From an uncultured Alcaligenaceae bacterium (lineage in GTDB: Bacteria > Planctomycetota > Planctomycetia > Gemmatales > Gemmataceae), in the NCBI GenBank assembly GCA_964518515.1, contig CAZFGM010000015.1, forward strand, positions 1-23,257: a DNA stretch of 23,257 nt, in the 5' to 3' direction. The stretch's first letter is position 1. The number at the start of each line of letters is the position of its first letter. The position numbers and the translations under genes are program-made. Of the stretch, positions 111 through 23,221 are shown piece after piece. Below the pieces are notes generated by a model that searched no databases, was not told where the DNA came from, and saw nothing but the letters and a program-made list of their open reading frames with translations.

Positions 111-243
111 GAGTGCAAGACCAATTTGCAACGACTCCCCTTAAAACCCGTGTAGCCGCGGACCGCAGATCCGCGTAGACAGGATCCTGTCACCGATAGT
201 ATCCTGCCCGCGCAGTTCTGCGACCTGCGGCTAAACGAGTGGG

Positions 244-1167
244 ATGGAATCCATGATCGTTTTATCGGTTTTTCACTACCTGCTGGCGCTGGCGGGCGCT
301 CCTTTGCTCCTGGGAATCATCAACCGCACGAAAGCGGTGGTAGCGGGACGTGCCGGTCCGCCGCTGTTGCAGCTCTACTACGACCTGTGGAAACTGCTGC
401 ACAAGGGTGTGGTTTATAGCCGGACCACGACGTGGGTTTTCCGGGCCGGGCCGATTGTAGGTCTGGCGGCGGTGGGGACGGCCTTGCTGCTGGTGCCGTT
501 CGGCGGCGTCCCGGCGGTATTGTGGTTTAACGGCGACTTGGTGCTGTTGGCTTACCTTTTGGGTGTGGCCCGTTTCTTTACCGTGGCGGCGGCCCTGGAT
601 ACCGGCTCGAGCTTCGAGGGCATGGGCGCCAGCCGGGAAGTCTTTTTCGCGGCCCTGGTCGAGCCGGCCCTGTTAGTGGGCCTGGCCGCTGTGCTCCGCG
701 AAACCCAGGTCCTGTCGCTGTCCGCCAGTCACGCCCGATTCGCCAACGCAGGCATCTGGTATCAGGCCACCTTGACCTTGTCCCTGGTCACCGCCGCCCT
801 GATGGTCATCTTGCTCGTGGAGAATTGCCGGATTCCCTTCGACGATCCCACCACGCACCTGGAACTGACCATGATCCACGAGGTGATGGTGCTGGATCAC
901 AGCGGGCCGGACTTCGCCTACATCCTGTACGGGGCGGCCTTGAAGCTGTGGCTGGTTGGGGCGCTGGTCGTCGGCCTGGTGATACCGCCCACTGGAATAA
1001 TTGGCGTGGACAGCGTGCTGGCTCTTATGGCCCTGGGTTTGCTGGCCGTTCTAATCGGATTGATCGAATCGTCGATGGCCCGGCTGCGGTTGTTGCGGGT
1101 GCCGCAGTTGCTCGTCGGCGCCACTTCGCTGGCGGTCCTGGCTTTTGTCCTGGAGACCTTGAGGTAA
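244..1167 (+). CDS. Membrane subunit of formate-hydrogenlyase / hydrogenase-4 type complex (HycD/HyfC/EchB family, NuoH homolog)
   Basis: N-terminal signature GIINRTKAVVAGRAGPPLLQLYYDLWKLLHKG matches the conserved GxxR(K)xxARxQxRxGPxxxQxYxDLxKLxxK motif of HycD/NuoH. Polytopic hydrophobic protein of 307 aa. First gene after a long leader. Confidence 0.85.
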   Translation: MESMIVLSVFHYLLALAGAPLLLGIINRTKAVVAGRAGPPLLQLYYDLWKLLHKGVVYSRTTTWVFRAGPIVGLAAVGTALLLVPFGGVPAVLWFNGDLVLLAYLLGVARFFTVAAALDTGSSFEGMGASREVFFAALVEPALLVGLAAVLRETQVLSLSASHARFANAGIWYQATLTLSLVTAALMVILLVENCRIPFDDPTTHLELTMIHEVMVLDHSGPDFAYILYGAALKLWLVGALVVGLVIPPTGIIGVDSVLALMALGLLAVLIGLIESSMARLRLLRVPQLLVGATSLAVLAFVLETLR

Positions 1168-1195: not shown

Positions 1196-1254
1196 CTGTA
1201 GGACGGATTTCCAATCCGTCCTCGCCCGCAGACGATTAGAAATCCGTCCTACAC
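1196..1254. repeat. Intercistronic palindromic element, family A (nested hairpins).
   Basis: Inner hairpin GGACGGATT-tcc-AATCCGTCC at 1201-1221. Outer 14-bp arms GTAGGACGGATTTC (1198-1211) and GAAATCCGTCCTAC (1239-1252). Lies in the 101-nt gap between the NuoH-like and HyfE-like genes. Confidence 0.6.
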
Positions 1255-1268
1255 GAGATAGTAAGAAC

Positions 1269-1907
1269 ATGGTGTCGTTTCTGCTGGTTTTTGTCGTGCT
1301 GACGAATCTGGCCCTGGTCGGCTCGAGCCGGCTGGCCCTGGGGATTCGCGTGCTGGCGGGTCAGGGCGTTGCTCTGGGCCTGTTGCCGCTGGCGCTTCCG
1401 GGTCATGAGCTGGTTTGGCGGCTCTATCTCATTGCCGCCGCCAGCATTGGATTAAAGGGAGTAGTTTTTCCGCGCATGTTGTTTCGCGCCATGCGCGACG
1501 CCAATATCCGCCATGAAGTCGAGCCGTATGTGGGCTTTTCGGTGTCCATTCTGGCGGGAGTTTTAACTCTGGGTTTGGCGGTGTGGCTGGGGCCGCGGCT
1601 GGACCTGGGCTTGCCGCGGGCATACGATCCGCTGATATTGCCGACCGCGCTGTTTGCCGTGTTGATCGGCCTGTTTTTGATCGTCAGCCGAAGAAAGGCC
1701 TTGATGCAGGTCATGGGATATCTCGCCCTGGAAAACGGCATCTACCTGTTCGGCATCACGCTGGCGGCCGAGGAGCCATTTTTGGTGGAAATGGGAGTCC
1801 TGTTGGATGTGTTCGTGGCCGTGTTTGTCATGGGGATTGCGATCTTCCATATCAGCCGCGAGTTCGATCACATGGACGTGGAAAAGCTGTCGAGCTTGAA
1901 AGATTGA
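1269..1907 (+). CDS. Hydrogenase-4 component E-like small membrane subunit (HyfE family)
   Basis: 213 aa. C-terminal half (RKALMQVMGYLALENGIYLFGITLAAEEPFLVEMGVLLDVFVAVFVM ... HMDVEKLSSLKD) is collinear with E. coli HyfE (RNILRQIFGYCLMENGSHLVLALLA ... LDVNNLTALKG). The track ORF 825-1907 is an in-frame upstream extension that overlaps the previous gene. ATG at 1269 gives the homologous start. Confidence 0.85.
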   Translation: MVSFLLVFVVLTNLALVGSSRLALGIRVLAGQGVALGLLPLALPGHELVWRLYLIAAASIGLKGVVFPRMLFRAMRDANIRHEVEPYVGFSVSILAGVLTLGLAVWLGPRLDLGLPRAYDPLILPTALFAVLIGLFLIVSRRKALMQVMGYLALENGIYLFGITLAAEEPFLVEMGVLLDVFVAVFVMGIAIFHISREFDHMDVEKLSSLKD

Positions 1908-1915
1908 GCGTTGCG

Positions 1916-1976
1916 TTCCGAGCCGGAAGCGTTAGCGATGCCAACCAAGAACCTCGCTTACGCTTCCGGCTCGGAA
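1916..1976. repeat. Intercistronic palindromic element, family B, copy 1
   Basis: 20-bp arms CCGAGCCGGAAGCGTTAGCG (1918-1937) and CGCTTACGCTTCCGGCTCGG (1955-1974), with one mismatch and a loop containing AACCAA. Lies in the 86-nt gap between the HyfE-like and antiporter-like genes. Confidence 0.6.
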
Positions 1977-1993
1977 ATTTCCCGAGGGAACCG

Positions 1994-3475
1994 ATGCTCG
2001 TCGCGATAATCTTACTTCCGGCCCTGGCGGGGATAGCGTCATTTGCCCTCCCCTGGCACGGGGTGCGGCGGCTGCTTTGGGTGGTCACGGCCGGCGGCCA
2101 TGGGTTCCTGACGGTGGCTCTGTGGCTGGAGCCGCCGCCGCCGGCGCATGCCGACGACGTGCTGTTTCTGGACGCTGCCGGGCAGATTTTTCTCGGCATC
2201 ACCAGCCTGTTGTTTCTGGTCGCCGCGGTGTACGGCGTGGGGTACCTGGCCAAGGAAAAAGTGGGCCCGCGGCCCGACTTCTTCGCGACCTTGCTGTTCC
2301 GCAATGAACCCGAGGCAGTCTTTACGGGATGTTTGCTGCTTTTTCTGTCCTCCATGACTTTGGTGATCGTCAGTCAACATTTCGGTTTGATGTGGGTGGC
2401 CATCGAGGCGACGACGCTGGCCAGCGCCCCGCTCATCTATTTTCACCGGCACCCGCGTTCCCTGGAGGCGGCCTGGAAATACTTGCTGATTTGTTCGGTG
2501 GGCATCGCCCTGGCCCTTTTGGGCAATTATCTTTTGGCGGCGTGGGCCCGGCCGCTGGCCGGCGAACACTTTTCCTTGACCCTCGGCCACCTGCGCGGCA
2601 CGAGCGCCGCCAAGCTGTCCGAGCCGGCCCTGATGGCCGCCTTCCTGTTTTTCCTTGTCGGTTACGGCACCAAGATGGGCCTGGCCCCGTTGCACACCTG
2701 GCTGCCGGACGCCCACAGCGAAGCGCCGTCGCTGGTATCCGCCTTGCTCTCCGGGGCCTTGCTCAACTGCTCCCTTTTGGCCCTGTTGCGGGCCTTTCAG
2801 GTGTGCCTGAGCGCCGGTTTGGGAGATTTCGCCCGTGAGCTATTGATCCTGTTCGGCTTGATTTCCATGGGCGTGGCCGCGGTTTTCATTCTCGGCCAGA
2901 CCGATTTCAAACGCATGTTGGCCTATTCGTCGGTCGAGCACATGGGCATCTTGGCCCTGGGGATCGGCCTGGGCGGGCAGGCGGGACCCTACGGTGCGAT
3001 GCTGCACGCCATCAACCATTCGCTGACCAAGGCGACTCTGTTTTTGGCGGCCGGCAATATCCTGGCCGCCTTTCACACCAAGAACGTCCACGATGTTCGC
3101 GGCTTGGCGCGCGTCTTGCCCGTCACGGGCCTGTTGTGGCTGGGGGGCTTTCTCGCCCTGACCGGTTCGCCGCCGTTTGGTCCGTTCCTGAGCGAGTTCA
3201 CCATTCTCAAGGCGGCCCTGGAGGCCGATCGTCCCCTGGTGGCTGTCCTATACCTGGTGTTCCTGGCCCTCATCTTCGTCGGCATGGCGACGATCGTCTT
3301 GCGGATGGTGCAAGGCCCCGCGGGTTTTCTTCCCGGAGAGGCCAAACGGGAACGCTGGTGGGCGATCCTGCCGCCGGCCCTTCTGGGTCTGGGCGTGCTC
3401 GTTCTGGGACTGTACGTGCCGCCAGTATTGCAGCAGGTCCTGGAAAACGCCGGGCACACGCTGGGGGGACGATGA
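1994..3475 (+). CDS. Complex-I antiporter-like subunit (NuoN/NuoM/HyfF-HyfD family) of the hydrogenase-4-like module
   Basis: 493 aa polytopic membrane protein with NuoL/M/N-family conserved stretches (GYGTKMGLAPLHTWLPDAHSEAPSLVSALLSGALLN; AYSSVEHMGILALGIG). ATG at 1994 is preceded by GAGGGA. The track ORF 1583-3475 is an upstream in-frame extension. Confidence 0.8.
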   Translation: MLVAIILLPALAGIASFALPWHGVRRLLWVVTAGGHGFLTVALWLEPPPPAHADDVLFLDAAGQIFLGITSLLFLVAAVYGVGYLAKEKVGPRPDFFATLLFRNEPEAVFTGCLLLFLSSMTLVIVSQHFGLMWVAIEATTLASAPLIYFHRHPRSLEAAWKYLLICSVGIALALLGNYLLAAWARPLAGEHFSLTLGHLRGTSAAKLSEPALMAAFLFFLVGYGTKMGLAPLHTWLPDAHSEAPSLVSALLSGALLNCSLLALLRAFQVCLSAGLGDFARELLILFGLISMGVAAVFILGQTDFKRMLAYSSVEHMGILALGIGLGGQAGPYGAMLHAINHSLTKATLFLAAGNILAAFHTKNVHDVRGLARVLPVTGLLWLGGFLALTGSPPFGPFLSEFTILKAALEADRPLVAVLYLVFLALIFVGMATIVLRMVQGPAGFLPGEAKRERWWAILPPALLGLGVLVLGLYVPPVLQQVLENAGHTLGGR

Positions 3476-3484
3476 TGGCAGCTT

Positions 3485-3543
3485 GTGGGGCACGTTTTCA
3501 ACGTGCCGGTGGTGGGGGCAGGCACGTTGAAAACGTGCCCCAC
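3485..3543. repeat. Intercistronic palindromic element, family C (two self-complementary hairpins that also pair with each other).
   Basis: Arms GTGGGGCACGTTTTCAACGTGCC (3485-3507) and GGCACGTTGAAAACGTGCCCCAC (3521-3543) are perfect reverse complements. Each arm is itself a hairpin (GCACGTT..AACGTGC). Lies in the 88-nt gap before the large-subunit gene. Confidence 0.6.
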
Positions 3544-3563
3544 TTCCAAACGCTGGGAGGTCG

Positions 3564-5174
3564 ATGATGGCCGACGCCGCGCTGCCCTGGTTTTTCAATG
3601 CCCAGCCGATCTCGCTGCGCGACCTACCGTGCTTGACGGTGGACCGGTTCCGCGCCACGCTGCTCGACCAGGTCCGCCAGGGGAGTCGCGTCGTCGCTTT
3701 TTTCGGACAATTCCGAGCCGGAAGCGTAAGCGACGGTCTAACCAAACCCGTCGCTTACGCTTCCGGCTCGGACGTCGCTTACGCTTCCGGCTCGGACGGA
3801 GCACAGGGGGTGGTCCGCCTCTACGCGGTCCTGGCCCAGCGCGAAGAAGGCCAGTTGACCGCCCTGGCGTGCGACGTGGACGATCGCTACCCCGCCCTAA
3901 CACCGGATTGCCCGCAAGTCCACTGGTTCGAGCGGGAAATTGCCGAGCAGTGGGGCGTAATTCCGGAAGGGCATCCGTGGCTCAAGCCGATTCGCTTTCA
4001 CCGCTCGTATCGGCCCGGCCACGACGCCTGGGGCCGTTCCGCGGACGATCCCATCCAGCCGTGCGTCACGGACTATTTCCAGGTGGCGGGCAGCGAGATT
4101 CATGAGGTGGCCGTCGGGCCGGTGCATGCAGGAGTGATCGAGCCGGGGCACTTCCGCTTTCAGTGCCACGGCGAAAAAGTCTATCACCTGGAAATAGCGC
4201 TGGGCTATCAGCATCGTGGCGTGGAGCCGGCCCTGCGCGGCGGGCCAAACAAGCGAACCATTCATTACATGGAAACCCTAGCCGGCGACACGACAGTCGG
4301 CCACGCCACGGCCTACTGCCAGGCGTTGGAGGCCCTGGCAGAAACCGCGGTGCCGTTTCGGGCCCAGGCCGTGCGAGCGGTGGGCCTCGAATTGGAACGC
4401 CTGGCCAACCACACCGGCGACGTCGGCGCCCTGGCCGCCGACGTCGGCTATTTGTCCACCGCCGCCTACTGCGGTCGGCTGCGCGGCGACTTTCTCAACG
4501 CTACCGCTCTCCTCTGCGGCAGCCGGTTCGGACGCGGCCTGGTCCGACCAGGCGGCGTGGGCTTCGATTTGGAGGCCGCGCGCCTCCAGGATTTGCAAGG
4601 CCGGTTGACCGCCGCCCTCAAAGACGTGACCGGCGCCGTCAACCTGCTCTGGCATACCCCCTCGGTGCAGGCCCGCTTCGAAGAAACCGGCGCCGTGTCG
4701 CAGAGGGCCTGTCTGGAAATCGGCCTGGTAGGTCCCGCCGCCCGCGCCTGCGGCGTCGATCACGATGTCCGACACGATTTCCCGACCGGCATCTTTCGCT
4801 TCATGCAGATTCCGGTTTCCACTGCCCTCACAGGAGACGTCTTCGCCCGCGCCTACGTCCGCTGGCTGGAAATTCAGCGTTCGGGGGAATTTTTGCAGCA
4901 GCAGCTCCGCAGCCTGCCCGCTGGCCCGGTCCGCGTTCCTCTCGGGGGATTGATGCCGGACGCCTTGGTGGTGTCGCTGGTCGAGGGCTGGCGCGGGGAA
5001 ATCTGCCATGTCGCCCTGACCGACGCCCACGGCCGGTTCGCCGCCTACAAAGTCGTCGATCCGTCGTTCCACAACTGGTTCGGTCTGGCCCTCGCCCTGC
5101 GCGGCCAGCAGATATCCGATTTCCCGCTATGCAACAAGAGCTTCAATCTGTCCTATTGCGGACATGACCTGTAA
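3564..5174 (+). CDS. NuoC-NuoD fusion 'large subunit' homolog of group-4 hydrogenases (HycE/HyfG-like) lacking the N-terminal [NiFe] cysteine pair. Energy-converting hydrogenase-related (Ehr-type) catalytic-subunit homolog.
   Basis: N-terminal NuoC-like motif RYPALTPDCPQVHWFEREIAEQWGVIPEGHPWL. NuoD/large-subunit core GPVHAGVIEPGHFRF and HRGVE. The L1 motif position reads ETLAGDTTVGHATAY instead of ERxCGxCxxxHSTAY. The C-terminus reads DFPLCNKSFNLSYC instead of DPCxxCxxR. The start may be ATG 3564 or 3567 (RBS GGGAGG at 3556-3561). Confidence 0.8.
   Translation: MMADAALPWFFNAQPISLRDLPCLTVDRFRATLLDQVRQGSRVVAFFGQFRAGSVSDGLTKPVAYASGSDVAYASGSDGAQGVVRLYAVLAQREEGQLTALACDVDDRYPALTPDCPQVHWFEREIAEQWGVIPEGHPWLKPIRFHRSYRPGHDAWGRSADDPIQPCVTDYFQVAGSEIHEVAVGPVHAGVIEPGHFRFQCHGEKVYHLEIALGYQHRGVEPALRGGPNKRTIHYMETLAGDTTVGHATAYCQALEALAETAVPFRAQAVRAVGLELERLANHTGDVGALAADVGYLSTAAYCGRLRGDFLNATALLCGSRFGRGLVRPGGVGFDLEAARLQDLQGRLTAALKDVTGAVNLLWHTPSVQARFEETGAVSQRACLEIGLVGPAARACGVDHDVRHDFPTGIFRFMQIPVSTALTGDVFARAYVRWLEIQRSGEFLQQQLRSLPAGPVRVPLGGLMPDALVVSLVEGWRGEICHVALTDAHGRFAAYKVVDPSFHNWFGLALALRGQQISDFPLCNKSFNLSYCGHDL
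3711..3796. repeat. Family B palindromic element, copy 2, sitting in frame inside the large-subunit CDS. Its right arm is tandemly duplicated (2 x 24 nt).
   Basis: Perfect 25-bp arms TCCGAGCCGGAAGCGTAAGCGACGG (3712-3736) and CCGTCGCTTACGCTTCCGGCTCGGA (3748-3772). Loop tctaaccaaac. The 24-nt unit CGTCGCTTACGCTTCCGGCTCGGA repeats at 3749-3772 and 3773-3796. Translated as ...SVSDGLTKPVAYASGSDVAYASGSD... in a loop region of the NuoC-like domain. Confidence 0.6.
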
Positions 5175-5247
5175 CGAAAAAAAAGAGGATGGAGGATAGA
5201 GAATAGCGGATAGAGATAACGAATAACTCTTGTCTCTTTGGCCCCTG

Positions 5248-5277
5248 ATTGCATTTCTCCTCTTTCCTCTTCATAAT
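5248..5277 (+). promoter_or_regulatory. Sigma70-like promoter TTGCAT-17 nt-CATAAT upstream of the beta-propeller/peroxidase gene.
   Basis: TTGCAT at 5248-5253, a 17-nt pyrimidine-rich spacer, CATAAT at 5271-5276. G-rich RBS (GGGGGGAGTGGAG) at 5303-5315 before ATG 5319. Preceded by direct repeats GGATAGAGA (5192-5200, 5207-5215). Confidence 0.4.
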
Positions 5278-5318
5278 GATAAAGTTCGCCCTTGGTGCAT
5301 TTTGGGGGGAGTGGAGAA

Positions 5319-7211
5319 ATGCCGCGCTTTTACGGATTGGGTTGGGTACTGGCTGCCGTTGGCCTGGTGCTTTCGGGCGTTCACGCCGGCACCTCGAACA
5401 GCTTGTTAGATGTGTCGCCGGACGGCAAATATCTCCTGGCCGCCAACGCCGACAACGCCACGGTCACGGTGGTCGATACCCAGGGACGCAAGGCCCTGCG
5501 GGAAATCAAGGTCGGCGACAAGCCCGAAAGCGTGACCTGGATCGGCGCCGGCCCGCTGGCCGCCGCCGCGGTGTACAAGGAAAACCAGGTCGTAATTTTC
5601 AACACCCAGAATGGTGGGCTGGTCCGGCGAATCCCGGTCTCTCCGGAGCCCTACGGCATCGTGGCCGACAAGGCCGGCAAGCGCGCCTGGGTCACCCACG
5701 AATATCCGGGCACGATCAGCGAAATCGATCTGGAAAACCATAAAGTGCTTCGCGAAATCAAGGCCGGTGCCTTCCTGCGCGGCATGGCTCTTAGCCCGGA
5801 TGAAAAGTGCCTTTATGTCGCCGAGTTTTACACGGGCATCCTCCGCGCCGTCGATCTGGCCTCCGGAAAAGTGGCCGATTCGTGGAAAGGCCACAGCACC
5901 GATAACCTGGCCCGGCACGTTGCCCTGCATCCGCGGCGGCCGAAGGCCTACCTGGCCCACCTCCGCTCGATGGTCACGGTCAACGACGGCAGCGGCTCGA
6001 TCTTTCCGCACCTCAGCATCTGCGACCTGAAGCCGGGAGAGGGCCGGCGCCGCAACGCCTTCGGCATGGATACCTTTAACAATCTATCCGTCGTTACCAA
6101 TCCCTGGGAGACCGCCCTTTCGCCGGACGCCAAACGGTTGTACGTCATCTATGCCGCCACCAACGACATGAATGTTTGCAATGTCGTGGACGATGATTAC
6201 AACGAGATGGATCGGGTCGGCGGCCTGGTGCGCCTGGGCAACAATCCCCGCGCCGTGCGCGTCAGTCCGGACAGCAAGACGGTGTACATTTACAACGCCA
6301 TGGATTTCGCCGTCGCGGTTTACAATGCCGACATGAAATTCCTGGCCACGATCAAGGTGTGCGATCCGCCGGCGACCAAGACACCGGAGTGGGTGCGTGG
6401 CAAGATCCTGTTCAACACCTCCAATCCACCGCTGTCCAGCCGGCGCTGGGTGGCCTGCTCGTCGTGCCATCCGGACGGCCATCACGACGCGCGCGTGTGG
6501 CAGCAACCGGAGGGGCTGCGCAAAACGACCGCCTTTTTCGGCATGGCCCACACGCATCCGTTGCACTGGTCCGCCGACCGCGACGAGGTCCAGGATTTCG
6601 AGTTCACCATCCGCAGCCAGCTCATGCAAGGCCGGGGCTTGTTGACCGGGCCGATCAAGAGCAAGCGCGGTTTCGAAAAAGTTGAGCTGGAGGAAAAAAC
6701 TTCCGGCCGATCCAAGGACCTGGACGCCCTGGCCATTTACTGCAACTCCTTCGATTTCCCGCTGTCGCCGCACATCCAGGCGCCGGGCAAGCTCAAACCC
6801 GAGGCCGAGCGCGGCAAGAAGCTCTTTTTCAGCAAAGAAGTTGGCTGCGCCGGCTGCCATAGCGGGCCCTACTTCACCGATAGCAGCTTGAAAAAACCGT
6901 TTGTCATGCACGACGTCGGCACCGGCAACGACGATCCCACCGAGAAAATGGGGGCCATATATGACACCCCCACCTTGCTCGGCATATATCGCACCGCTCC
7001 CTACCTTCACCATGGCAAGGCCAAGACCCTGCACGAAGTCTTGACCGTGTTCAACAAACAGGACAAGCACGGGCGGACCAGCCACCTCAAGAAAGACGAG
7101 CTTGATGATCTGGCGGCGTTCCTGCAAGCGTTGCCGTACGAGCCGCCGCCGGCGGTGACGCCCAACACGGTGGACTTCCGCGTGCCGCCGGGGTACCAGG
7201 CCAAGCCGTAA
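5319..7211 (+). CDS. Secreted fusion protein: N-terminal YVTN-type beta-propeller repeats plus C-terminal di-heme cytochrome c peroxidase (CCP/MauG family) domain.
   Basis: Signal peptide MPRFYGLGWVLAAVGLVLSGVHA. At least four SPDxKxLYVxN...V.VVD repeats (SPDGKYLLAANADNATVTVVD, SPDEKCLYVAEF, SPDAKRLYVIYAATND, SPDSKTVYIYNAMD). Two CxxCH haem motifs (CSSCH, CAGCH). CCP-like WSADR and CAGCHSGPYFTD. TAPYLHHGKAKTLHEVL resembles CCP TAPYMHDG but Met is replaced by Leu. Confidence 0.75.
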   Translation: MPRFYGLGWVLAAVGLVLSGVHAGTSNSLLDVSPDGKYLLAANADNATVTVVDTQGRKALREIKVGDKPESVTWIGAGPLAAAAVYKENQVVIFNTQNGGLVRRIPVSPEPYGIVADKAGKRAWVTHEYPGTISEIDLENHKVLREIKAGAFLRGMALSPDEKCLYVAEFYTGILRAVDLASGKVADSWKGHSTDNLARHVALHPRRPKAYLAHLRSMVTVNDGSGSIFPHLSICDLKPGEGRRRNAFGMDTFNNLSVVTNPWETALSPDAKRLYVIYAATNDMNVCNVVDDDYNEMDRVGGLVRLGNNPRAVRVSPDSKTVYIYNAMDFAVAVYNADMKFLATIKVCDPPATKTPEWVRGKILFNTSNPPLSSRRWVACSSCHPDGHHDARVWQQPEGLRKTTAFFGMAHTHPLHWSADRDEVQDFEFTIRSQLMQGRGLLTGPIKSKRGFEKVELEEKTSGRSKDLDALAIYCNSFDFPLSPHIQAPGKLKPEAERGKKLFFSKEVGCAGCHSGPYFTDSSLKKPFVMHDVGTGNDDPTEKMGAIYDTPTLLGIYRTAPYLHHGKAKTLHEVLTVFNKQDKHGRTSHLKKDELDDLAAFLQALPYEPPPAVTPNTVDFRVPPGYQAKP

Positions 7212-7221
7212 GGAGGCTGAC

Positions 7222-8016
7222 ATGCCCAGTCCGTTTCCGGGAATGGATCCTTACTTGGAAAGTGTGGTTCTCTGGGGCGGGGTCCACCTCCGGTTCATTA
7301 CCTATTTGAGCGACAAGTTAAATGCCCTCATGCCTCCCACCTATATCGCCAATATCGGGGAACGTGTTTATGTTGAACCGGTCGATCGCAATATTCTTCC
7401 CGATGTGTGGCTGACCAAGAAACGGCATACCTCGGGAAAACGCAACGGCAAAGCCTTGGCGGCCCTGGCTGACGATCCCTGGGAATTCGAGCTTGTCCCG
7501 GAAGAAATCCATGAAGCCTACATTGAAATCCAGGAGGTAACGGGCAGAAAACGCATTGTGACCTCCATTGAAGTCCTTAGCCCGACGAACAAACTCGCCG
7601 GCGGTGAAGGCCGAGGCCAATATCTGCAAAAGCAGCGCGAGGTGTTGACAAGCAAAACCCACCTGCTGGAAATGGATCTGCTGCGTCATGGCCATCATAC
7701 TGTGGCCGTTCCTGCCTATCGTTTGCAACGCCGGGGACTGTGGGATTACCTGGTCTGTTTGTCGCGCGGCAATGACCGGGAACATCGGCAGGTGTGGGCT
7801 TTCACCTTGAAACAGCGCCTGCCGCGCATCCGGGTTCCTCTGGCGGGGAAAGACCCTGATGTGGTCGTGGATTTGCAAAGGTTGCTGGATGAAGTTTATG
7901 ACCAGGGCGCCTACGCCCGCAAGATTGATTATCGCTATGACCCCATGGAACACCTGACCCCCGAACAAGACAAATGGGCCGACAAACTACTCAAACGCCG
8001 CGGTTTGCGCCGGTGA
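7222..8016 (+). CDS. DUF4058 family protein (function unknown)
   Basis: N-terminus MPSPFPGMDPYLE...W..VH..I is characteristic of DUF4058. The gene has visibly lower GC than its flanks. The AAGGAGG RBS overlaps the TAA stop of the preceding gene. Confidence 0.65.
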   Translation: MPSPFPGMDPYLESVVLWGGVHLRFITYLSDKLNALMPPTYIANIGERVYVEPVDRNILPDVWLTKKRHTSGKRNGKALAALADDPWEFELVPEEIHEAYIEIQEVTGRKRIVTSIEVLSPTNKLAGGEGRGQYLQKQREVLTSKTHLLEMDLLRHGHHTVAVPAYRLQRRGLWDYLVCLSRGNDREHRQVWAFTLKQRLPRIRVPLAGKDPDVVVDLQRLLDEVYDQGAYARKIDYRYDPMEHLTPEQDKWADKLLKRRGLRR

Positions 8017-8023
8017 ATAAAGA

Positions 8024-8803
8024 ATGAACCCCGACTGGAAAGTCCGCTATGAAGTCGCCCTGGACGCCGCTCACCAGGCCGGCCGGTTTGCTCTCGGCAA
8101 CTTCGACACCGCGATGGCCGTCGAGTGGAAAGCCGATCGCACTCCGGTGACCTCGGCCGACCGGGGGGCCGAGGCTCTGTTGAAATCCGGTCTGCTGGCC
8201 AAATTCCCCCGCGACGGCTTTCTCGGTGAAGAATCCGGCGACACGCCGGGGTCCTCGGGCTATCGCTGGATCATCGACCCGATCGACGGCACGCGCAATT
8301 TCGTCCGCGGCATTCCCCTCTGGGGAACGCTGGTTGGCCTGGAATACCAAGGCGAGGCCATCGCCGGCGTGGCGTATGTGCCGGCGCTGAATCAAACCTA
8401 CCGGGCTCTGCGCGGCGACGGCGCCTACCGGGATGACCGCCGGCTGCGCGTCTCCGACGTGGGTCGGCTCGAGGAGGCGTCCTTGTTTTATTCCAGCATC
8501 TCCTGGTTTATCAAAGCCGGCTGCGAGAACCGCTTTTTGAATTTGGTCAAGCAAACCCAACGCCAGCGCGGCTTCGGCGATTTCTATGGGTTTGTTCTGG
8601 TCGCCCAGGGCTCTGGTGATTTGATGGTCGAGCACGGCGTCCACATCTGGGACCTGGCCGCCCTGCAGCCCATCGTCGAGGAGGCCGGCGGACGCCTGAC
8701 CGACTGGACCGGCAAGGCAGATATTACCCGCCCGGATGTGCTGGCCAGCAATGGACGCCTGCACGCGGCGGCGTTGCAGGTATTACAAAGAAATGACAGT
8801 TAA
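8024..8803 (+). CDS. Inositol monophosphatase family protein (HisN-type histidinol-phosphatase / IMPase-like)
   Basis: IMPase signature WIIDPIDGTRNFVRGIPLWGTLVGL and metal-binding FLGEE. 259 aa. Confidence 0.75.
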   Translation: MNPDWKVRYEVALDAAHQAGRFALGNFDTAMAVEWKADRTPVTSADRGAEALLKSGLLAKFPRDGFLGEESGDTPGSSGYRWIIDPIDGTRNFVRGIPLWGTLVGLEYQGEAIAGVAYVPALNQTYRALRGDGAYRDDRRLRVSDVGRLEEASLFYSSISWFIKAGCENRFLNLVKQTQRQRGFGDFYGFVLVAQGSGDLMVEHGVHIWDLAALQPIVEEAGGRLTDWTGKADITRPDVLASNGRLHAAALQVLQRNDS

Positions 8804-8880
8804 TATCCGTCCGTTGCCGTGCGTAGCGTAGCTCGCTCGGCGGTTTCGCGTGACCAGAATCAATAACCGAAAAAAAAACC

Positions 8881-11484: not shown

Positions 11485-11940
11485 CAGGAGCACTCCTCTG
11501 AGCTGTGTGCCATGAGCGAGTCAAACCGCTACCACTATCTGGAACCATGTTCCAGGCCAACTATCCACAATGGTACGTGAAGGGACGGCGAATTCGTGCC
11601 GAGGTGCTCTTTACCGGGAAACGGTTGGTGATGACTCGCGGACGGCACCAGACCTGCCCCTGAAGACTTCGTTCACAACGAAGGTTTTCTGCGACAAGAG
11701 CGGGAGCGCGAGGAAGCCGAATAGCGCGAATTTGCAAAAAATACCCGCCGCTGTGGCCTTCCAATGTTAGGCCGCAACATGAAAAGTTATCTCGACGATA
11801 ATCGCACCGACAGGTCTCTGCTGGGGTTCTATCGACGCGAAACCGCCGAGCGAGCTTCTTATACGCAGCCGGGGCCACAAGTCCCTGGGCGAGGTGGCTT
11901 CTGACATAAATCTACTCCAGTTCCGGATTGGGAAGCTGAC

Positions 11941-13185: not shown

Positions 13186-14130
13186 ATGGATCACGATCAA
13201 CGGTTCAAGATTATGCTCCAGGAATTTTTCGCCGATTTCCTGCAGCTTTTCTTCGCCGATTGGGCCTTGCGGCTGGATTGTCAGGCGGTGCAATGGATTG
13301 ACAAGGAAGTTTTTTCGGACCCGCCGGAAGGCCGGCGTCGCGTTCTGGATTTGGTGGGCAAAGTGCCTACCCGCCAAGGCGTTTCCGGCCAGAGGCCGGG
13401 GGATCCCGAGCAATGGTTGGCCCTGGTCCACATCGAGATCGAATCGCCGGACCGGACCACGCCGCTGAAGCCGCGCCTGTTCCGCATGTATGCCAACTTG
13501 CGGGACAAGTATGAACTGCCGGTGTTGCCGATCGGCTTGTTTCTCAAAGTTGGCCTTGAGGGCATCGGCATCGAGCTTTACGAAGAATACTTCTGGGAAT
13601 TCTGCCCGGTGACGTTTCGCTTTTTGTATGTTGGGTTGCCGGCCCTGGATGGGTTAAAATATGTGCAAGGCGACAACTGGCTGGGCGTGGCCCTGTCGGC
13701 CTTGATGAAAATCCCAAAGGAAAAAGTGGCCTGGCTGGGCGCCGAAGCGTTGCGCCGTCTGGTCGAGGCCCCCTTGACGGATCAACAAAAATTTTTACTG
13801 GCCGAATGCGTGCAAGCCTACCTGCCGTTGGACGAGGCACAGCAACAAGAATACGAACGTATCGTGGCCGGCGAACCTTATCAAGGAGTAACAGCGATGA
13901 ATACGACCTGGTTTGAAAAAGGTATCAAAAAAGGACGTGAAGAAGGACGAGAAGAAGGAAGGGAAATAGGTCTGCGCGACGTATTGCCGGACCAACTCCA
14001 GGACCGATTTGGTCCGTTACCGGACAAAGTCTTGGATCGGCTTCAGAAAATGTCCGGGGAAGAGTTGACCAAGGTGGGTAAGGCGCTCGTGCGGGCCAAG
14101 TCGCTAAAGGACCTGGGCTTAGAAAGCTGA
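13186..14130 (+). CDS. Rpn-family-like (PD-(D/E)XK-type) recombination-promoting nuclease homolog with C-terminal DUF4351 domain
   Basis: N-terminus MDHDQRFKIMLQEFFADFLQLFF...IDKEVFSD...RRRVLDLVGKV...HIEIES gives a D...ExE/Q nuclease-like pattern. C-terminus LQDRFGPLPDKVLDRLQKMSGEELTKVGKALVRAKSLKDLGL is DUF4351-like. Starts 3 nt after the permease stop. Confidence 0.6.
   Translation: MDHDQRFKIMLQEFFADFLQLFFADWALRLDCQAVQWIDKEVFSDPPEGRRRVLDLVGKVPTRQGVSGQRPGDPEQWLALVHIEIESPDRTTPLKPRLFRMYANLRDKYELPVLPIGLFLKVGLEGIGIELYEEYFWEFCPVTFRFLYVGLPALDGLKYVQGDNWLGVALSALMKIPKEKVAWLGAEALRRLVEAPLTDQQKFLLAECVQAYLPLDEAQQQEYERIVAGEPYQGVTAMNTTWFEKGIKKGREEGREEGREIGLRDVLPDQLQDRFGPLPDKVLDRLQKMSGEELTKVGKALVRAKSLKDLGLES
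13897..14130 (+). CDS. Candidate internal in-frame small ORF (77 aa) expressing only the DUF4351 domain of the Rpn-like gene (RpnS-like).
   Basis: AAGGAG at 13883-13888 lies 8 nt before an in-frame ATG at 13897, inside the larger ORF. The same cctatcaaggag...gcgATGaa context precedes the stand-alone paralog at 14210. Confidence 0.3.
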   Translation: MNTTWFEKGIKKGREEGREEGREIGLRDVLPDQLQDRFGPLPDKVLDRLQKMSGEELTKVGKALVRAKSLKDLGLES

Positions 14131-14209
14131 GAGCAATCAAGCGTACCTAGCCCGAAGAAGCCCAGTAGCAAGAATTTACCGGCAGGAACCCTATCAAGGA
14201 GAAAATGCG

Positions 14210-14452
14210 ATGAACAAAACTCCCTTTGAAAAAGGATACGAAGTAGGATTGATAATTGCCGCATGGGAAATGAAAGAAAATGGCCTCCGCGATCTCCGCG
14301 AGGTTTTGTTAGACCTACTTCATGAGCGATTTGGTCCGTTATCAGACAAAGTTTTGGAACGGTTTCAGAAAATGTCCGGGGAAGAGTTGACCAAGCTGGG
14401 TAAGGCGCTCTATCGGGCCGAGTCGCTGGAAGACCTGGGCTTGGAAAGGTGA
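14210..14452 (+). CDS. Stand-alone DUF4351 small protein, a recent duplicate of the 3' part of the preceding Rpn-like gene.
   Basis: 80 aa. The second half (ERFGPLSDKVLERFQKMSGEELTKLGKALYRAESLEDLGLE) is about 90% identical at the nucleotide level to 14010-14125. The RBS context is duplicated too. Confidence 0.6.
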   Translation: MNKTPFEKGYEVGLIIAAWEMKENGLRDLREVLLDLLHERFGPLSDKVLERFQKMSGEELTKLGKALYRAESLEDLGLER

Positions 14453-15219
14453 GTAACCTCATCCCCCCTTTTGCTATGCTGGAACTTCGCCACATCACGA
14501 AAACCTACGCCGGTCCGCAAGGGCGGGTGAAGGCTCTCCAGGACCTGTCGCTCAGCGTCGGGGCCGGTGAGTTCGTCGCCGTGCGCGGGCCTTCGGGGTG
14601 CGGCAAAACCACCCTGCTGCTGGCCGCGGGCGGCTTGCTGCGCCCCGATGCCGGCGAGGTCCTGGTGAACGGCGAAAACCTGTACCGCTTGCCGGCCGAG
14701 GCGCGGGCCCGCTTCCGCGCCGCTACCATCGGCTTTGTATTCCAGCAATTTCACCTAGTGCCGTACCTGAGCGTGCGCGACAACATCCTGACGCCGACCC
14801 TGGCTCATCCATTCCCCGAGGCCAGAAACCGAGCGGCAGAACTGCTCGCCCGTTTCGGGTTAGAACACCGCGCTCGCCACGTGCCCGCCGAGCTCAGCAC
14901 CGGCGAACGCCAGCGCACCGCCCTGGCCCGCGCCTTACTCACCCGGCCGCGCCTTCTTCTGGCTGACGAACCGACCGGCAACCTCGACGACGCCAACGGC
15001 CAGATCGTTCTCACGTGCCTGGCCGATTTCGCCCGCGCCGGCGGCGCCGTGCTGCTGGTGACCCACGATCAGCGCGCCGCCGAAGTGGCCCAGCGCACCG
15101 TGGAATTGGCCAACGCGGCGAGCGGGGGGCGTCAGCCCCCTGATGGCCAGAACATCTGTCACCTCCCATTGCATCAACCGGGGGCTTACGCCCCCGGCGC
15201 GCCAGGAGGCGGGCCATGA
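14449..15219 (+). CDS. ABC transporter ATP-binding protein (LolD/MacB-type ATPase, partner of the FtsX-like permease)
   Basis: Walker A GPSGCGKTT, Q-loop, signature LSTGERQRTALARAL, Walker B LLLADEPTGNLD, H-loop VTHD. Start is either GTG 14449 (overlapping the upstream TGA) or ATG 14476. Confidence 0.8.
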   Translation: MSNLIPPFAMLELRHITKTYAGPQGRVKALQDLSLSVGAGEFVAVRGPSGCGKTTLLLAAGGLLRPDAGEVLVNGENLYRLPAEARARFRAATIGFVFQQFHLVPYLSVRDNILTPTLAHPFPEARNRAAELLARFGLEHRARHVPAELSTGERQRTALARALLTRPRLLLADEPTGNLDDANGQIVLTCLADFARAGGAVLLVTHDQRAAEVAQRTVELANAASGGRQPPDGQNICHLPLHQPGAYAPGAPGGGP

Positions 15220-18371: not shown

Positions 18372-18644
18372 ATGCAGATCACCATCAAATACATGGCCCA
18401 GCTCAAACAAGCCGCCGCCGTGGCTGGCGAATCGGTCGAGGTGGAATCGCCCTGTGCCGTCGAAAACATCGTCCGCCTGCTGGCCCAGCGCCATGGGGAG
18501 ACCTTTCGCCGCATCGTGCTGGACGGCCAGGACCGGGTTCAGCCGGCCCTTCTTCTTTTCGTCGGCGAGGACCAAGTGCGCCCGGATTATGTCTTCCAAG
18601 ATGGCGATGTCTTGACCATCCTCGCTCCCATGGCGGGGGGATAG
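18372..18644 (+). CDS. MoaD/ThiS-family ubiquitin-like sulfur-carrier protein ending in Gly-Gly
   Basis: 90 aa, MQITIKYMAQLKQ...DGDVLTILAPMAGG. Beta-grasp length and a C-terminal GG immediately before the stop. ATG lies 6 nt after the ModC-like stop. Confidence 0.65.
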   Translation: MQITIKYMAQLKQAAAVAGESVEVESPCAVENIVRLLAQRHGETFRRIVLDGQDRVQPALLLFVGEDQVRPDYVFQDGDVLTILAPMAGG

Positions 18645-18647
18645 GCG

Positions 18648-18842
18648 CCGCGCCACCTCTCGACGCTGTATCGCGGCCTGCACTCGATCAGCTTCGTCGC
18701 CGCCTGCCGCCTTGCCTGGCTGGCCGGACGCGACTCGCGCCTCCCCAAGCGCTTCGTCCTCGTCGAGGAGAAGACCAACCTCAACGTGCCGCAGCCCAAC
18801 CTCGCCTACGCCATCGCACGCGAACACAACCCCCTTGACCAG
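18648..18842 (+). pseudogene. Start-less coding-like remnant (about 65 codons with strong GC3 bias) in frame with, and directly after, the MoaD-like TAG stop.
   Basis: In the frame of 18372: ...MAGG*APRHLSTLYRGLHSISFVAACRLAWLAGRDSRLPKRFVLVEEKTNLNVPQPNLAYAIAREHNPLDQ. Third-codon positions are almost all G/C, as in neighbouring genes. GC content and codon bias collapse after about 18842. Confidence 0.3.
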
Positions 18843-21372: not shown

Positions 21373-21397
21373 CCGAGATATACCGCGACATTATTAA

Positions 21398-21481
21398 GCC
21401 GGCGAGCTTGCTCGCCGTGGAGGGGATGCTGGCCGCGGCGAGCAAGCTCGCCGGCTAAATGAAATGCCTCTTTTTTTTACG
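21398..21481 (+). terminator. Large perfect hairpin (20-bp arms) downstream of the flotillin gene, followed by a T8 run. Putative terminator / mRNA 3' stabiliser.
   Basis: GCCGGCGAGCTTGCTCGCCG (21398-21417) pairs perfectly with CGGCGAGCAAGCTCGCCGGC (21436-21455). T-run at 21471-21478. The U-tract is about 15 nt from the stem, so this is not a canonical intrinsic terminator. Confidence 0.4.
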
Positions 21482-21639: not shown

Positions 21640-21945
21640 GTGACACTGAGCAAAGTGGAACAGGCGATCCTGGAGATTCTGGACAGACGTCCAAGCGAAG
21701 AAATCCAGGGCCGAGAATTGAGAGGTTTATTGCGAAACCGGGGGTTCCGAAGGACTGCCCCGGCATTTGTATTCACCATGATGCGGTTGGAGGACAAAGG
21801 AATGATTACGTGCCGGGATGAAGTTCGGGATGTTGAGGGCGTGGAAGTCAGAGAACGCTATTATCGCCGCAGAGAAAACCTACTTGAAAAGGAGGAATTG
21901 ACGGATACCCTGCATGATGTCTGGTTCGGCCAGGAGAAGGAGTAA
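21640..21945 (+). CDS. Small PadR-like winged-helix transcriptional regulator (about 101 aa). GTG start preferred.
   Basis: ...EIQGRELRGLL...TAPAFVFTMMRLEDKGMITCRDEV...RERYYRR fits the PadR pattern (YGYEL...G.LYP.L.RLE..G.I......RKYY.LT). TAGGAG RBS at 21627-21632 sits 7 nt before GTG 21640. Lower GC than flanks. Confidence 0.5.
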   Translation: MTLSKVEQAILEILDRRPSEEIQGRELRGLLRNRGFRRTAPAFVFTMMRLEDKGMITCRDEVRDVEGVEVRERYYRRRENLLEKEELTDTLHDVWFGQEKE

Positions 21946-22005
21946 GAGAAAGAGTAAGAGTAGAGAAAGAGAAAGAGAAAGAGAAAGAGAAAGAGTAGGG
22001 TAGGA
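21946..22005. repeat. Purine-rich hexanucleotide microsatellite (GAGAAA)n between the PadR-like stop and the DUF4432 start
   Basis: Five perfect GAGAAA units at 21963-21992 within a longer GAGWAA/GAGTAG tract (21946-22005). It abuts ATG 22006. Confidence 0.8.
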
Positions 22006-23202: not shown

Positions 23203-23221
23203 CCCGCATTTCTCACCAAAT

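Follow-up and report, generated by a model that had tools for sequence, protein, structure and literature searches.

Palindromes of dispersed, probably REP/REPIN-type families inserted into the gene junctions of a complex-I/hydrogenase-4-like operon on a Planctomycete-like contig

The GTAG-tagged superfamily of repetitive extragenic palindromes (REPs) is present in Planctomycetes, and variants with a GTGG tag are known (PMC3733652). Single genomes can hold several REP families, and REPs have been documented just 3' of open reading frames (ORFs) as well as within genes, as in-frame dimers of 20-30 codons (PMC3733652). Class 3 TnpA-Y1 transposases (Quentin et al. 2018) are proteins of ~178 aa with NHVH, W[TA] and Y----Q motifs that occur in Planctomycetes, Acidobacteria and Proteobacteria; their genes are flanked by atypical secondary structures with a CnGA foot, with ~600 copies in Solibacter usitatus (PMC6006769). 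In E. coli, REP hairpins, together with other internal structures, stabilise upstream mRNA segments of operons such as malEFG (PMC5927463). Here, these systems are compared with three large palindromes, families A, B and C, that separate four complex-I/hydrogenase-4-like subunit genes (identified with Pfam) on the + strand of the first 5.2 kb of a metagenome-assembled genome (MAG) contig with a Planctomycete-like host, CAZFGM010000015.1. The window referred to below is this whole contig of 23,257 nt. The three palindromes are very probably non-autonomous elements of REP or REPIN type (REPINs being REP doublets that form hairpins) that landed in the operon's junctions, any effect on the mRNA probably being a by-product.

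The preliminary description of the window had reported A, B and C as lying exactly between the stop and start codons of consecutive genes, and all three are found there. A REP was taken to be a stem-loop with a 6-13 bp stem, a 2-5 nt loop and an unpaired GTAG tag (or a variant such as GTGG), and both A and C have this anatomy, each with an unpaired tag, an 8-bp stem and a 3-nt loop (TCC in A, TTC in C). The first REP of A (1198-1221) reads GTAG-GACGGATT-TCC-AATCCGTC-C and contains a nested 9-bp hairpin, GGACGGATT/AATCCGTCC, at 1201-1221. After a 9-nt spacer follows a second, inverted and degenerate REP (1231-1252; reverse complement GTAGGACGGATTTCTAATCGTC), and together they give 20-nt arms at 1197-1216 and 1234-1253 that are 95% complementary, set between a TAA at 1165-1167 and an ATG at 1269. 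C is more regular, reading GTGG-G-GGCACGTT-TTC-AACGTGCC, a 13-nt spacer and then the inverted copy, so that its 23-nt arms (3485-3507 and 3521-3543) are 100% complementary and each is itself a hairpin, GGCACGTT-TTC-AACGTGCC; it lies between a TGA at 3473-3475 and an ATG at 3561/3564. Like known REPINs, A and C are thus head-to-head dimers that make one long hairpin. B has 23-nt arms (1916-1938 and 1954-1976; 96% complementary) around a 15-nt loop, TGCCAACCAAGAACC, and stands between a TGA at 1905-1907 and an ATG at 1994.

Six hairpins on the contig have arms of 14 nt or more with no more than one mismatch and loops of up to 70 nt; 100 dinucleotide shuffles gave 0.17 on average, and the longest arm found in any of the shuffled contigs was 16 nt. 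Folding energies, a calculation that the preliminary description had proposed, came to -41.8, -44.9 and -52.3 kcal/mol for the RNA of the A, B and C gaps (z = -7.9, -5.5 and -6.6), and such stability was not reached in any of 200 dinucleotide shuffles. Strong, GC-rich hairpins 3' of stop codons could also be intrinsic terminators or attenuators that subdivide the operon. This is very improbable here, as no T-run follows A, B or C (their 3' tails are ACGAGATA, AATTTCCC and TTCCAAAC) and the stems are far longer than is typical of terminators. A terminator scan flagged none of the three, picking out only a weak 6-bp hairpin at 1174-1190 in the first gap, and its total of 11 sites is within the expectation from shuffled sequence (7.3 +/- 2.7). 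A search of Rfam families with E-values up to 1 returned only sub-threshold matches of plant and animal microRNA precursors to the hairpins, and CRISPR-like arrays were considered and rejected.

Orthologous operons show how the junctions look without these elements. The comparison covered the four closest operons that could be inspected, all with the same gene order, at the H/K, K/N and N/CD junctions (labels such as L001 and L060 denote comparison stretches from other genomes or metagenomes). In the window, the three gaps measure 101, 86 and 88 nt. In L001, whose HycE-like protein is 75% identical, they are 39, 2 and 10 nt, the 39-nt junction carrying a small hairpin of its own; in the contig of P0003 they are -4, 4 and -1 nt, in L219 -4, -1 and -4 nt, and in L220 2 and 3 nt. 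A further copy of B lies in frame inside the hycE-like gene, with perfect 25-nt arms (3712-3736 and 3748-3772) followed by a tandem third arm (3773-3796), and encodes ~29 extra residues, RAGSVSDGLTKPVAYASGSDVAYASGSDG, in a part of variable sequence ahead of the NuoC-like domain. The listed HycE-like homologues are mostly 504-512 aa long, and the 29-residue block is absent from all ten that were aligned (504-507 aa). Since the orthologous junctions are short or overlapping and lack the palindromes, and the HycE block is likewise absent, the comparison shows A, B and C to be insertions that created the gaps, rather than structures recruited into pre-existing ones.

All three palindromes also belong to dispersed families, as the preliminary description had proposed. 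The A REP recurs at 23221 in the window, in L149 and, in two copies, in L118, a contig that also has C. The hairpin core of C, GGCACGTTTTCAACGTGCC, was found in at least 120 metagenome stretches in a scan of metagenome contigs. Its usual layout is GTGG(G/C)-GGCACGTT-TTC-AACGTGCC, a spacer of ~2-65 nt (mostly ~8-30) and an inverted copy ending in (C/G)CCAC, and this head-to-head arrangement is seen in most of the 136 matches listed from metagenome loci. The B arm, GCTWACGCTTCCGGCTCGGA, was found in at least 97 genome stretches in a scan of one genome per species. Among the matches listed, its hosts are Gemmatales, Isosphaerales, other Planctomycetota, Bryobacterales and Acidobacteriaceae. In the Planctomycetota groups it forms the full palindrome TCCGAGCCGGAAGCGTWAGCGACG-loop-CGTCGCTWACGCTTCCGGCTCGGA, with lineage-specific loops, and most copies from Bryobacterales and Acidobacteriaceae consist of one arm inside another repeat, which in Bryobacterales reads TTAGGGC-arm-TTCGGAGTTAG. 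Across 60 unique full B palindromes, Watson-Crick pairing amounts to 93.8%, with compensatory changes at four arm positions. Both B copies in the window have similar loops (..AACCAA..), which is expected if they multiplied within one genome.

The distribution of these families is also REP-like, being mostly extragenic and near the 3' ends of ORFs. Among the matches listed, 18% of B and 26% of C copies lie inside long open frames, against 63-66% of random spans (66% for C), and the window copies of A and C all sit after stop codons. An adapter or assembly artefact was rejected because reading frames are unbroken, the loops differ by lineage and an isolate genome, that of Aquisphaera insulae, also contains the families. 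The B and C stem sequences had no match in the text and supplementary files of PMC3733652.

For B, a candidate mobilising enzyme was found in related genomes. E. coli RAYT and IS608 TnpA sequences, used as probes only, led by tblastn to a Y1-like gene in L042 (E = 1e-4) that was confirmed by Pfam, NCBIfam and its homologues; weak probe matches in L147 and L192 turned out to be unrelated ORFs. Such a gene adjoins B arms in L042, L081, L027 and L060, with a remnant in L012. In L042, a second, truncated Y1-like ORF (2952-3191) lies on the opposite side of the B arm. In five of five independent loci (L060, L221/L222, L223, L224-226 and L227), B palindromes stand on both sides of the Y1 gene, one ~10-60 nt upstream and the other overlapping its stop codon downstream. 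Arm variants are lineage-specific and change in both arms together, as in CCCGAAGC/GCTTCGGG of L223 and CCTGAAGC/GCTTCAGG of L227. The B arm begins T-CCGA-GCC in the window, and the foot varies to CAGA in L221 and CGGA in L223.

In L060, from Gemmatales, a 174-aa Y1 gene (4981-5505) is lodged with its two B palindromes between hsdR and hsdM, and a B arm provides the stop codons of both hsdR and the Y1 gene (..SEPEA*). Within this stretch (1380-7145), a further B arm lies in frame in hsdM of the type I restriction system, where it encodes RAGSVSDG, a peptide also present in the HycE insert of the window. In NCBIfam, the L060 protein hits REP_Tyr_transpos (E = 6e-8) and IS200 (E = 8e-8), and in Pfam it hits Y1_Tnp; it has 1,654 homologues, which carry the JGI name 'REP element-mobilizing transposase RayT'. 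It has the motifs SNHVHVVV, RWTQ and YVVIGQ, and the NHVH plus Y----Q signature recurs in L027, L042, L081, L223 and L224-226. A sequence search of the PDB with a RayT-like protein gave only a marginal IS200-like match, 2fyx (E = 0.96). B is associated with RayT-like genes in related genomes.

In all of this B resembles the class 3 TnpA-Y1 systems: its arms have a CnGA foot, it is multi-copy in Planctomycetes and Acidobacteria, and it flanks both sides of Y1 genes for proteins of ~174-181 aa with the NHVH and Y----Q motifs. It differs in that B is a 24-bp-armed palindrome in Planctomycetes and mostly a single arm in Acidobacteria, and in that the window has no Y1 gene among its genes, the association with the transposase being seen in the related genomes only. 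Planctomycetota and Acidobacteriota share an identical B arm of 20 nt (L002-L098; for example L042 3302-3321, L012, L081 and L027), and the RayT-like proteins beside it are only ~40% identical between L060 and L042. Taken together, these two observations may point to either cross-phylum transfer or extreme constraint on the recognised DNA.

One palindrome per gap also recalls an integron gene-cassette array, and short inverted repeats recall the miniature inverted-repeat transposable elements (MITEs) of DDE transposons. That the palindromes are integron attC sites or classical MITEs is nevertheless the least credible of the readings weighed here. The genes are ordered as in the conserved operon of relatives, no GTTRRRY/RYYYAAC core was seen on reading the sequence and no integrase occurs among the genes of the contig. 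No target-site duplication was seen around the B copies, and B flanks a Y1 rather than a DDE transposase gene.

Several observations weigh against the assignment to REP/REPIN-type elements. No Y1- or RAYT-like ORF was found by tblastn or motif scan beside A or C in ~120 sampled loci, so the placement of A and C in the GTAG-tagged superfamily rests on their anatomy, dimer organisation and distribution; a single-copy RAYT gene serving them may have been missed by the sampling. B has neither a GTAG tag nor a REP-sized hairpin within its arms. The B-linked protein scores below the NCBIfam equivalog cut-offs for RAYT and IS200 (32.6 bits against 80 and 55), as is expected for a separate class, and transposition has never been shown for class 3 systems (PMC6006769). 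The source genome is represented by a single 23-kb contig, with two copies of A, two of B and one of C, and the hosts of well-known REPs and REPINs are E. coli and Pseudomonas as opposed to a Planctomycete-like MAG. Clustering of the ORFs within 1.2 kb of B and C revealed no recurrent neighbour (the largest clusters took in 5 of ~97 B loci and 7 of ~120 C loci), which fits dispersed elements served by a single-copy transposase.

Under the REP/REPIN explanation, single-copy Y1 (HUH) tyrosine transposases of RayT/TnpA-REP type would act in trans to multiply short hairpin repeats, recognising the hairpin in single-stranded DNA. A and C would be head-to-head dimers of GTAG- and GTGG-tagged REPs, and B a long-armed CnGA-foot palindrome of class 3 TnpA-Y1. 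Copies would have landed where insertion was tolerated, three in stop/start junctions and one in frame in a variable loop near the N-terminus of HycE, opening the 86-101 nt gaps. In the polycistronic transcript, each would fold into a hairpin of about -30 to -50 kcal/mol that lacks a U-tract. These structures would end the ancestral translational coupling of stop and start codons, and might hold up 3'-5' exonucleases or recruit RNase III.

A role for A, B and C in segmental mRNA stability, as the preliminary description had envisaged, is accordingly worth weighing, and by analogy with the malE-malF REPs and bacterial interspersed mosaic elements it is plausible: in both cases, stable hairpins without a U-tract stand between the cistrons of a polycistronic operon. 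The cases differ in that function was demonstrated in E. coli and the present hairpins are known from sequence, and in that here the hairpins replace ancestral overlapping junctions. That the hairpins have been domesticated as mRNA punctuation, shielding upstream segments from 3'-5' exonucleases and setting the levels of membrane and peripheral subunits, is unlikely. Very stable hairpins exactly between cistrons, the missing U-tracts and the E. coli precedent would suit it, as would the Shine-Dalgarno-like motifs kept between B or C and the next start codon (GAGGGAA at 1983-1989 and GGGAGG at 3553-3558) and the presence of other palindromes at the same junctions in the relative L219. However, families differ between lineages, and such elements fill most gaps of the contig whatever the operon. 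A by-product of selfish spread, and not a designed feature, is favoured because the hairpins are missing from the closest orthologues, members of these families occur in unrelated places, including the interiors of genes, and L219 has different palindromes at its junctions.

The stems are near-perfect duplexes of 23-25 bp, in general a substrate length for bacterial RNase III, though perhaps not for that of Planctomycetes, and the palindromes might be processing sites at which 20-25 bp duplexes are cut, so that the polycistron is split into separate mRNAs or destabilised. As the primary explanation this appears improbable, and such cleavage would be compatible with the REP/REPIN explanation as a consequence of it.

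In L219, the junctions of the same operon carry other, unrelated palindromes (5932-5985, 7516-7647 and 8443-8531), one of which is read through as the C-terminus of NuoN, and L001 likewise has unrelated palindromes at 7781-7811 and 18625-18683, one of them separating the genes for cox2 and cox1. In these Planctomycetes, the junctions of operons seem to be permissive sites that were colonised repeatedly. It is more doubtful that stop/start overlaps in tightly coupled respiratory operons are preferred sites of REPIN landing or retention in Planctomycetes, with the hairpins then perhaps taken over as operon punctuation that sets subunit stoichiometry once translational coupling has gone; this reading is based on the different families found, independently, at the same junctions in the window contig, L219 and L001.

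The features of the window are collected in Table 1.

Table 1. Coordinates of the operon genes and palindromes in the window, with the evidence or properties of each.
Feature	Position	Strand	Basis or properties
Family E, compound GTAG-tagged palindrome upstream of the first gene	152..235	.	-52.7 kcal/mol, z = -6.8
NuoH/HycD-like gene for a membrane subunit, at the start of the module	244..1167	+	Pfam PF00146, E = 1e-28
Family A, head-to-head dimer of GTAG-tagged REP	1197..1253	.	Palindrome search, fold; same REP in L118, L149
NuoK/HyfE-like subunit gene	1269..1907	+	Pfam PF00420
Family B, copy 1	1916..1976	.	Foot CCGA; arms TTCCGAGCCGGAAGCGTTAGCGA / TCGCTTACGCTTCCGGCTCGGAA
NuoN/HyfB-F-like antiporter subunit gene	1994..3475	+	Pfam PF00361
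Family C, head-to-head dimer of GTGG-tagged REP	3485..3543	.	Palindrome search, fold, metagenome matches
Fused NuoC+NuoD (HycE-like) large subunit gene with in-frame B insertion	3564..5174	+	Pfam PF00329, PF00346; alignment
Family B, copy 2, in frame inside the hycE-like ORF	3711..3796	.	-66.7 kcal/mol, z = -7.8; overlooked in the preliminary description
Family G, twin hairpins GGGGGCGTCAGCCCCC ... GGGGGCTTACGCCCCC (GGGGGCGTMAGCCCCC type)	15120..15200	.	C-terminal tail of ABC ATPase
Family D, 28-nt arms 93% complementary	21393..21460	.	-61.9 kcal/mol, z = -7.95
A-like REP, GTAG-CACGGATT-TCCC-AATCCGT..., cut by the contig end	23221..23257	+	GTAGCACGGATTTCCCAATCCGT...; overlooked in the preliminary description

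Beyond the operon, the contig is rich in comparable structures. Each arm of family D is a hairpin, GGCGAGC-TT-GCTCGCC, with a TTAG-like tag; the palindrome lies 20 nt 3' of a flotillin-like gene with a T8 run ~10 nt downstream, and may be at once a REP dimer and a terminator. L001 carries a hairpin related to family E, TAGCCGCGGTTC-TGC-GAACCGTGGCTA, at its H/K junction. The family G hairpins are read as roughly the 30 final codons of an ORF for an ABC ATPase (14449-15219), whose ATGA overlap with the next gene is kept, and the family occurs elsewhere with the flank GAGCGGGGGGCGTMAGCCCCCTGA (L084 7545-7650 and L104 12777). In total, at least six REP-like families are present on the 23-kb contig, and most gaps of 50 nt or more hold one. 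The preliminary description had judged three distinct families in one operon unusual. This did not hold, given the number of families on the contig, the documented genomes with several REP families (PMC3733652) and the other palindromes at the same junctions in L219; in this multiplicity, and in the occasional in-frame intragenic copies of 20-30 residues, the contig again resembles REP/REPIN genomes.

The copies inside genes also recall Rickettsia palindromic elements, in which a palindrome lies in frame within a conserved gene and adds a short peptide with the frame kept. B copy 2 in hycE and family G in the ABC ATPase tail are the corresponding cases here. The sequence family and the host are different, and B occurs between genes as well.

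A perfect 22-nt inverted pair, AGCTCGCTCGGCGGTTTCGCGT, is found at 8830-8851 and 11835-11856, 2,983 nt apart and with GTAG before the first copy. It brackets an mtnA-like gene and an unannotated 476-aa ORF, and could mark the two termini of a mobile segment or belong to yet another REP family, present as single copies. Purine-rich AG tracts (short repeats of GAGAAA/GAGTAA type) lie directly 3' of two stop codons, at 5175-5230 and 21934-22003, and are another kind of intergenic filler than the palindromes. A 161-nt direct repeat with 84% identity (13971-14131 and 14293-14453) covers the 3' ends of a DUF4351-containing ORF and of the next small ORF, and looks like a local duplication of a C-terminal domain.

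The module itself is truncated relative to its relatives. NuoL-like and NuoB/ferredoxin genes adjoin it in every relative inspected, and the window lacks the former upstream and the latter downstream, as judged from regions 1-243 and 5175-5318 and from the whole contig. A tblastn search of the window with the NuoL, NuoB/Fer4, PTS-EIIA and aldose-epimerase proteins of L001 found none of them. Bases 1-40 resemble, by eye, the 5' half of a minus-strand tRNA; a tRNA scan with ARAGORN found none. The HycE-like subunit and all its close homologues have METLAGDTT.GHA and a C-terminal end reading DFPLCNKSFNLSYCGHDL in the alignment. The former stretch stands at the place of the N-terminal CxxC ligands of [NiFe] hydrogenases, and the subunit may therefore belong to a hydrogenase-related complex without the NiFe site.

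A and C are very probably additions to the known GTAG-type REPINs, and B to the known hairpins associated with class 3 TnpA-Y1. The region is a clear natural case of an operon remodelled by selfish hairpin repeats, in which junctions that overlap in relatives became structured spacers of 86-101 nt and a conserved catalytic subunit acquired a 29-residue loop encoded by a repeat. When MAGs of Planctomycetes and Acidobacteria are annotated, palindromes of this kind should be treated as elements of REP/REPIN type and not as regulatory RNAs, terminators or attC sites; they also account for contig breaks and odd protein extensions. TCCGAGCCGGAAGCGTWAGCGACG marks an easily searchable DNA family tied to the poorly studied class 3 TnpA-Y1 transposases, and thereby provides a handle on whether these enzymes mobilise the hairpins that flank them.

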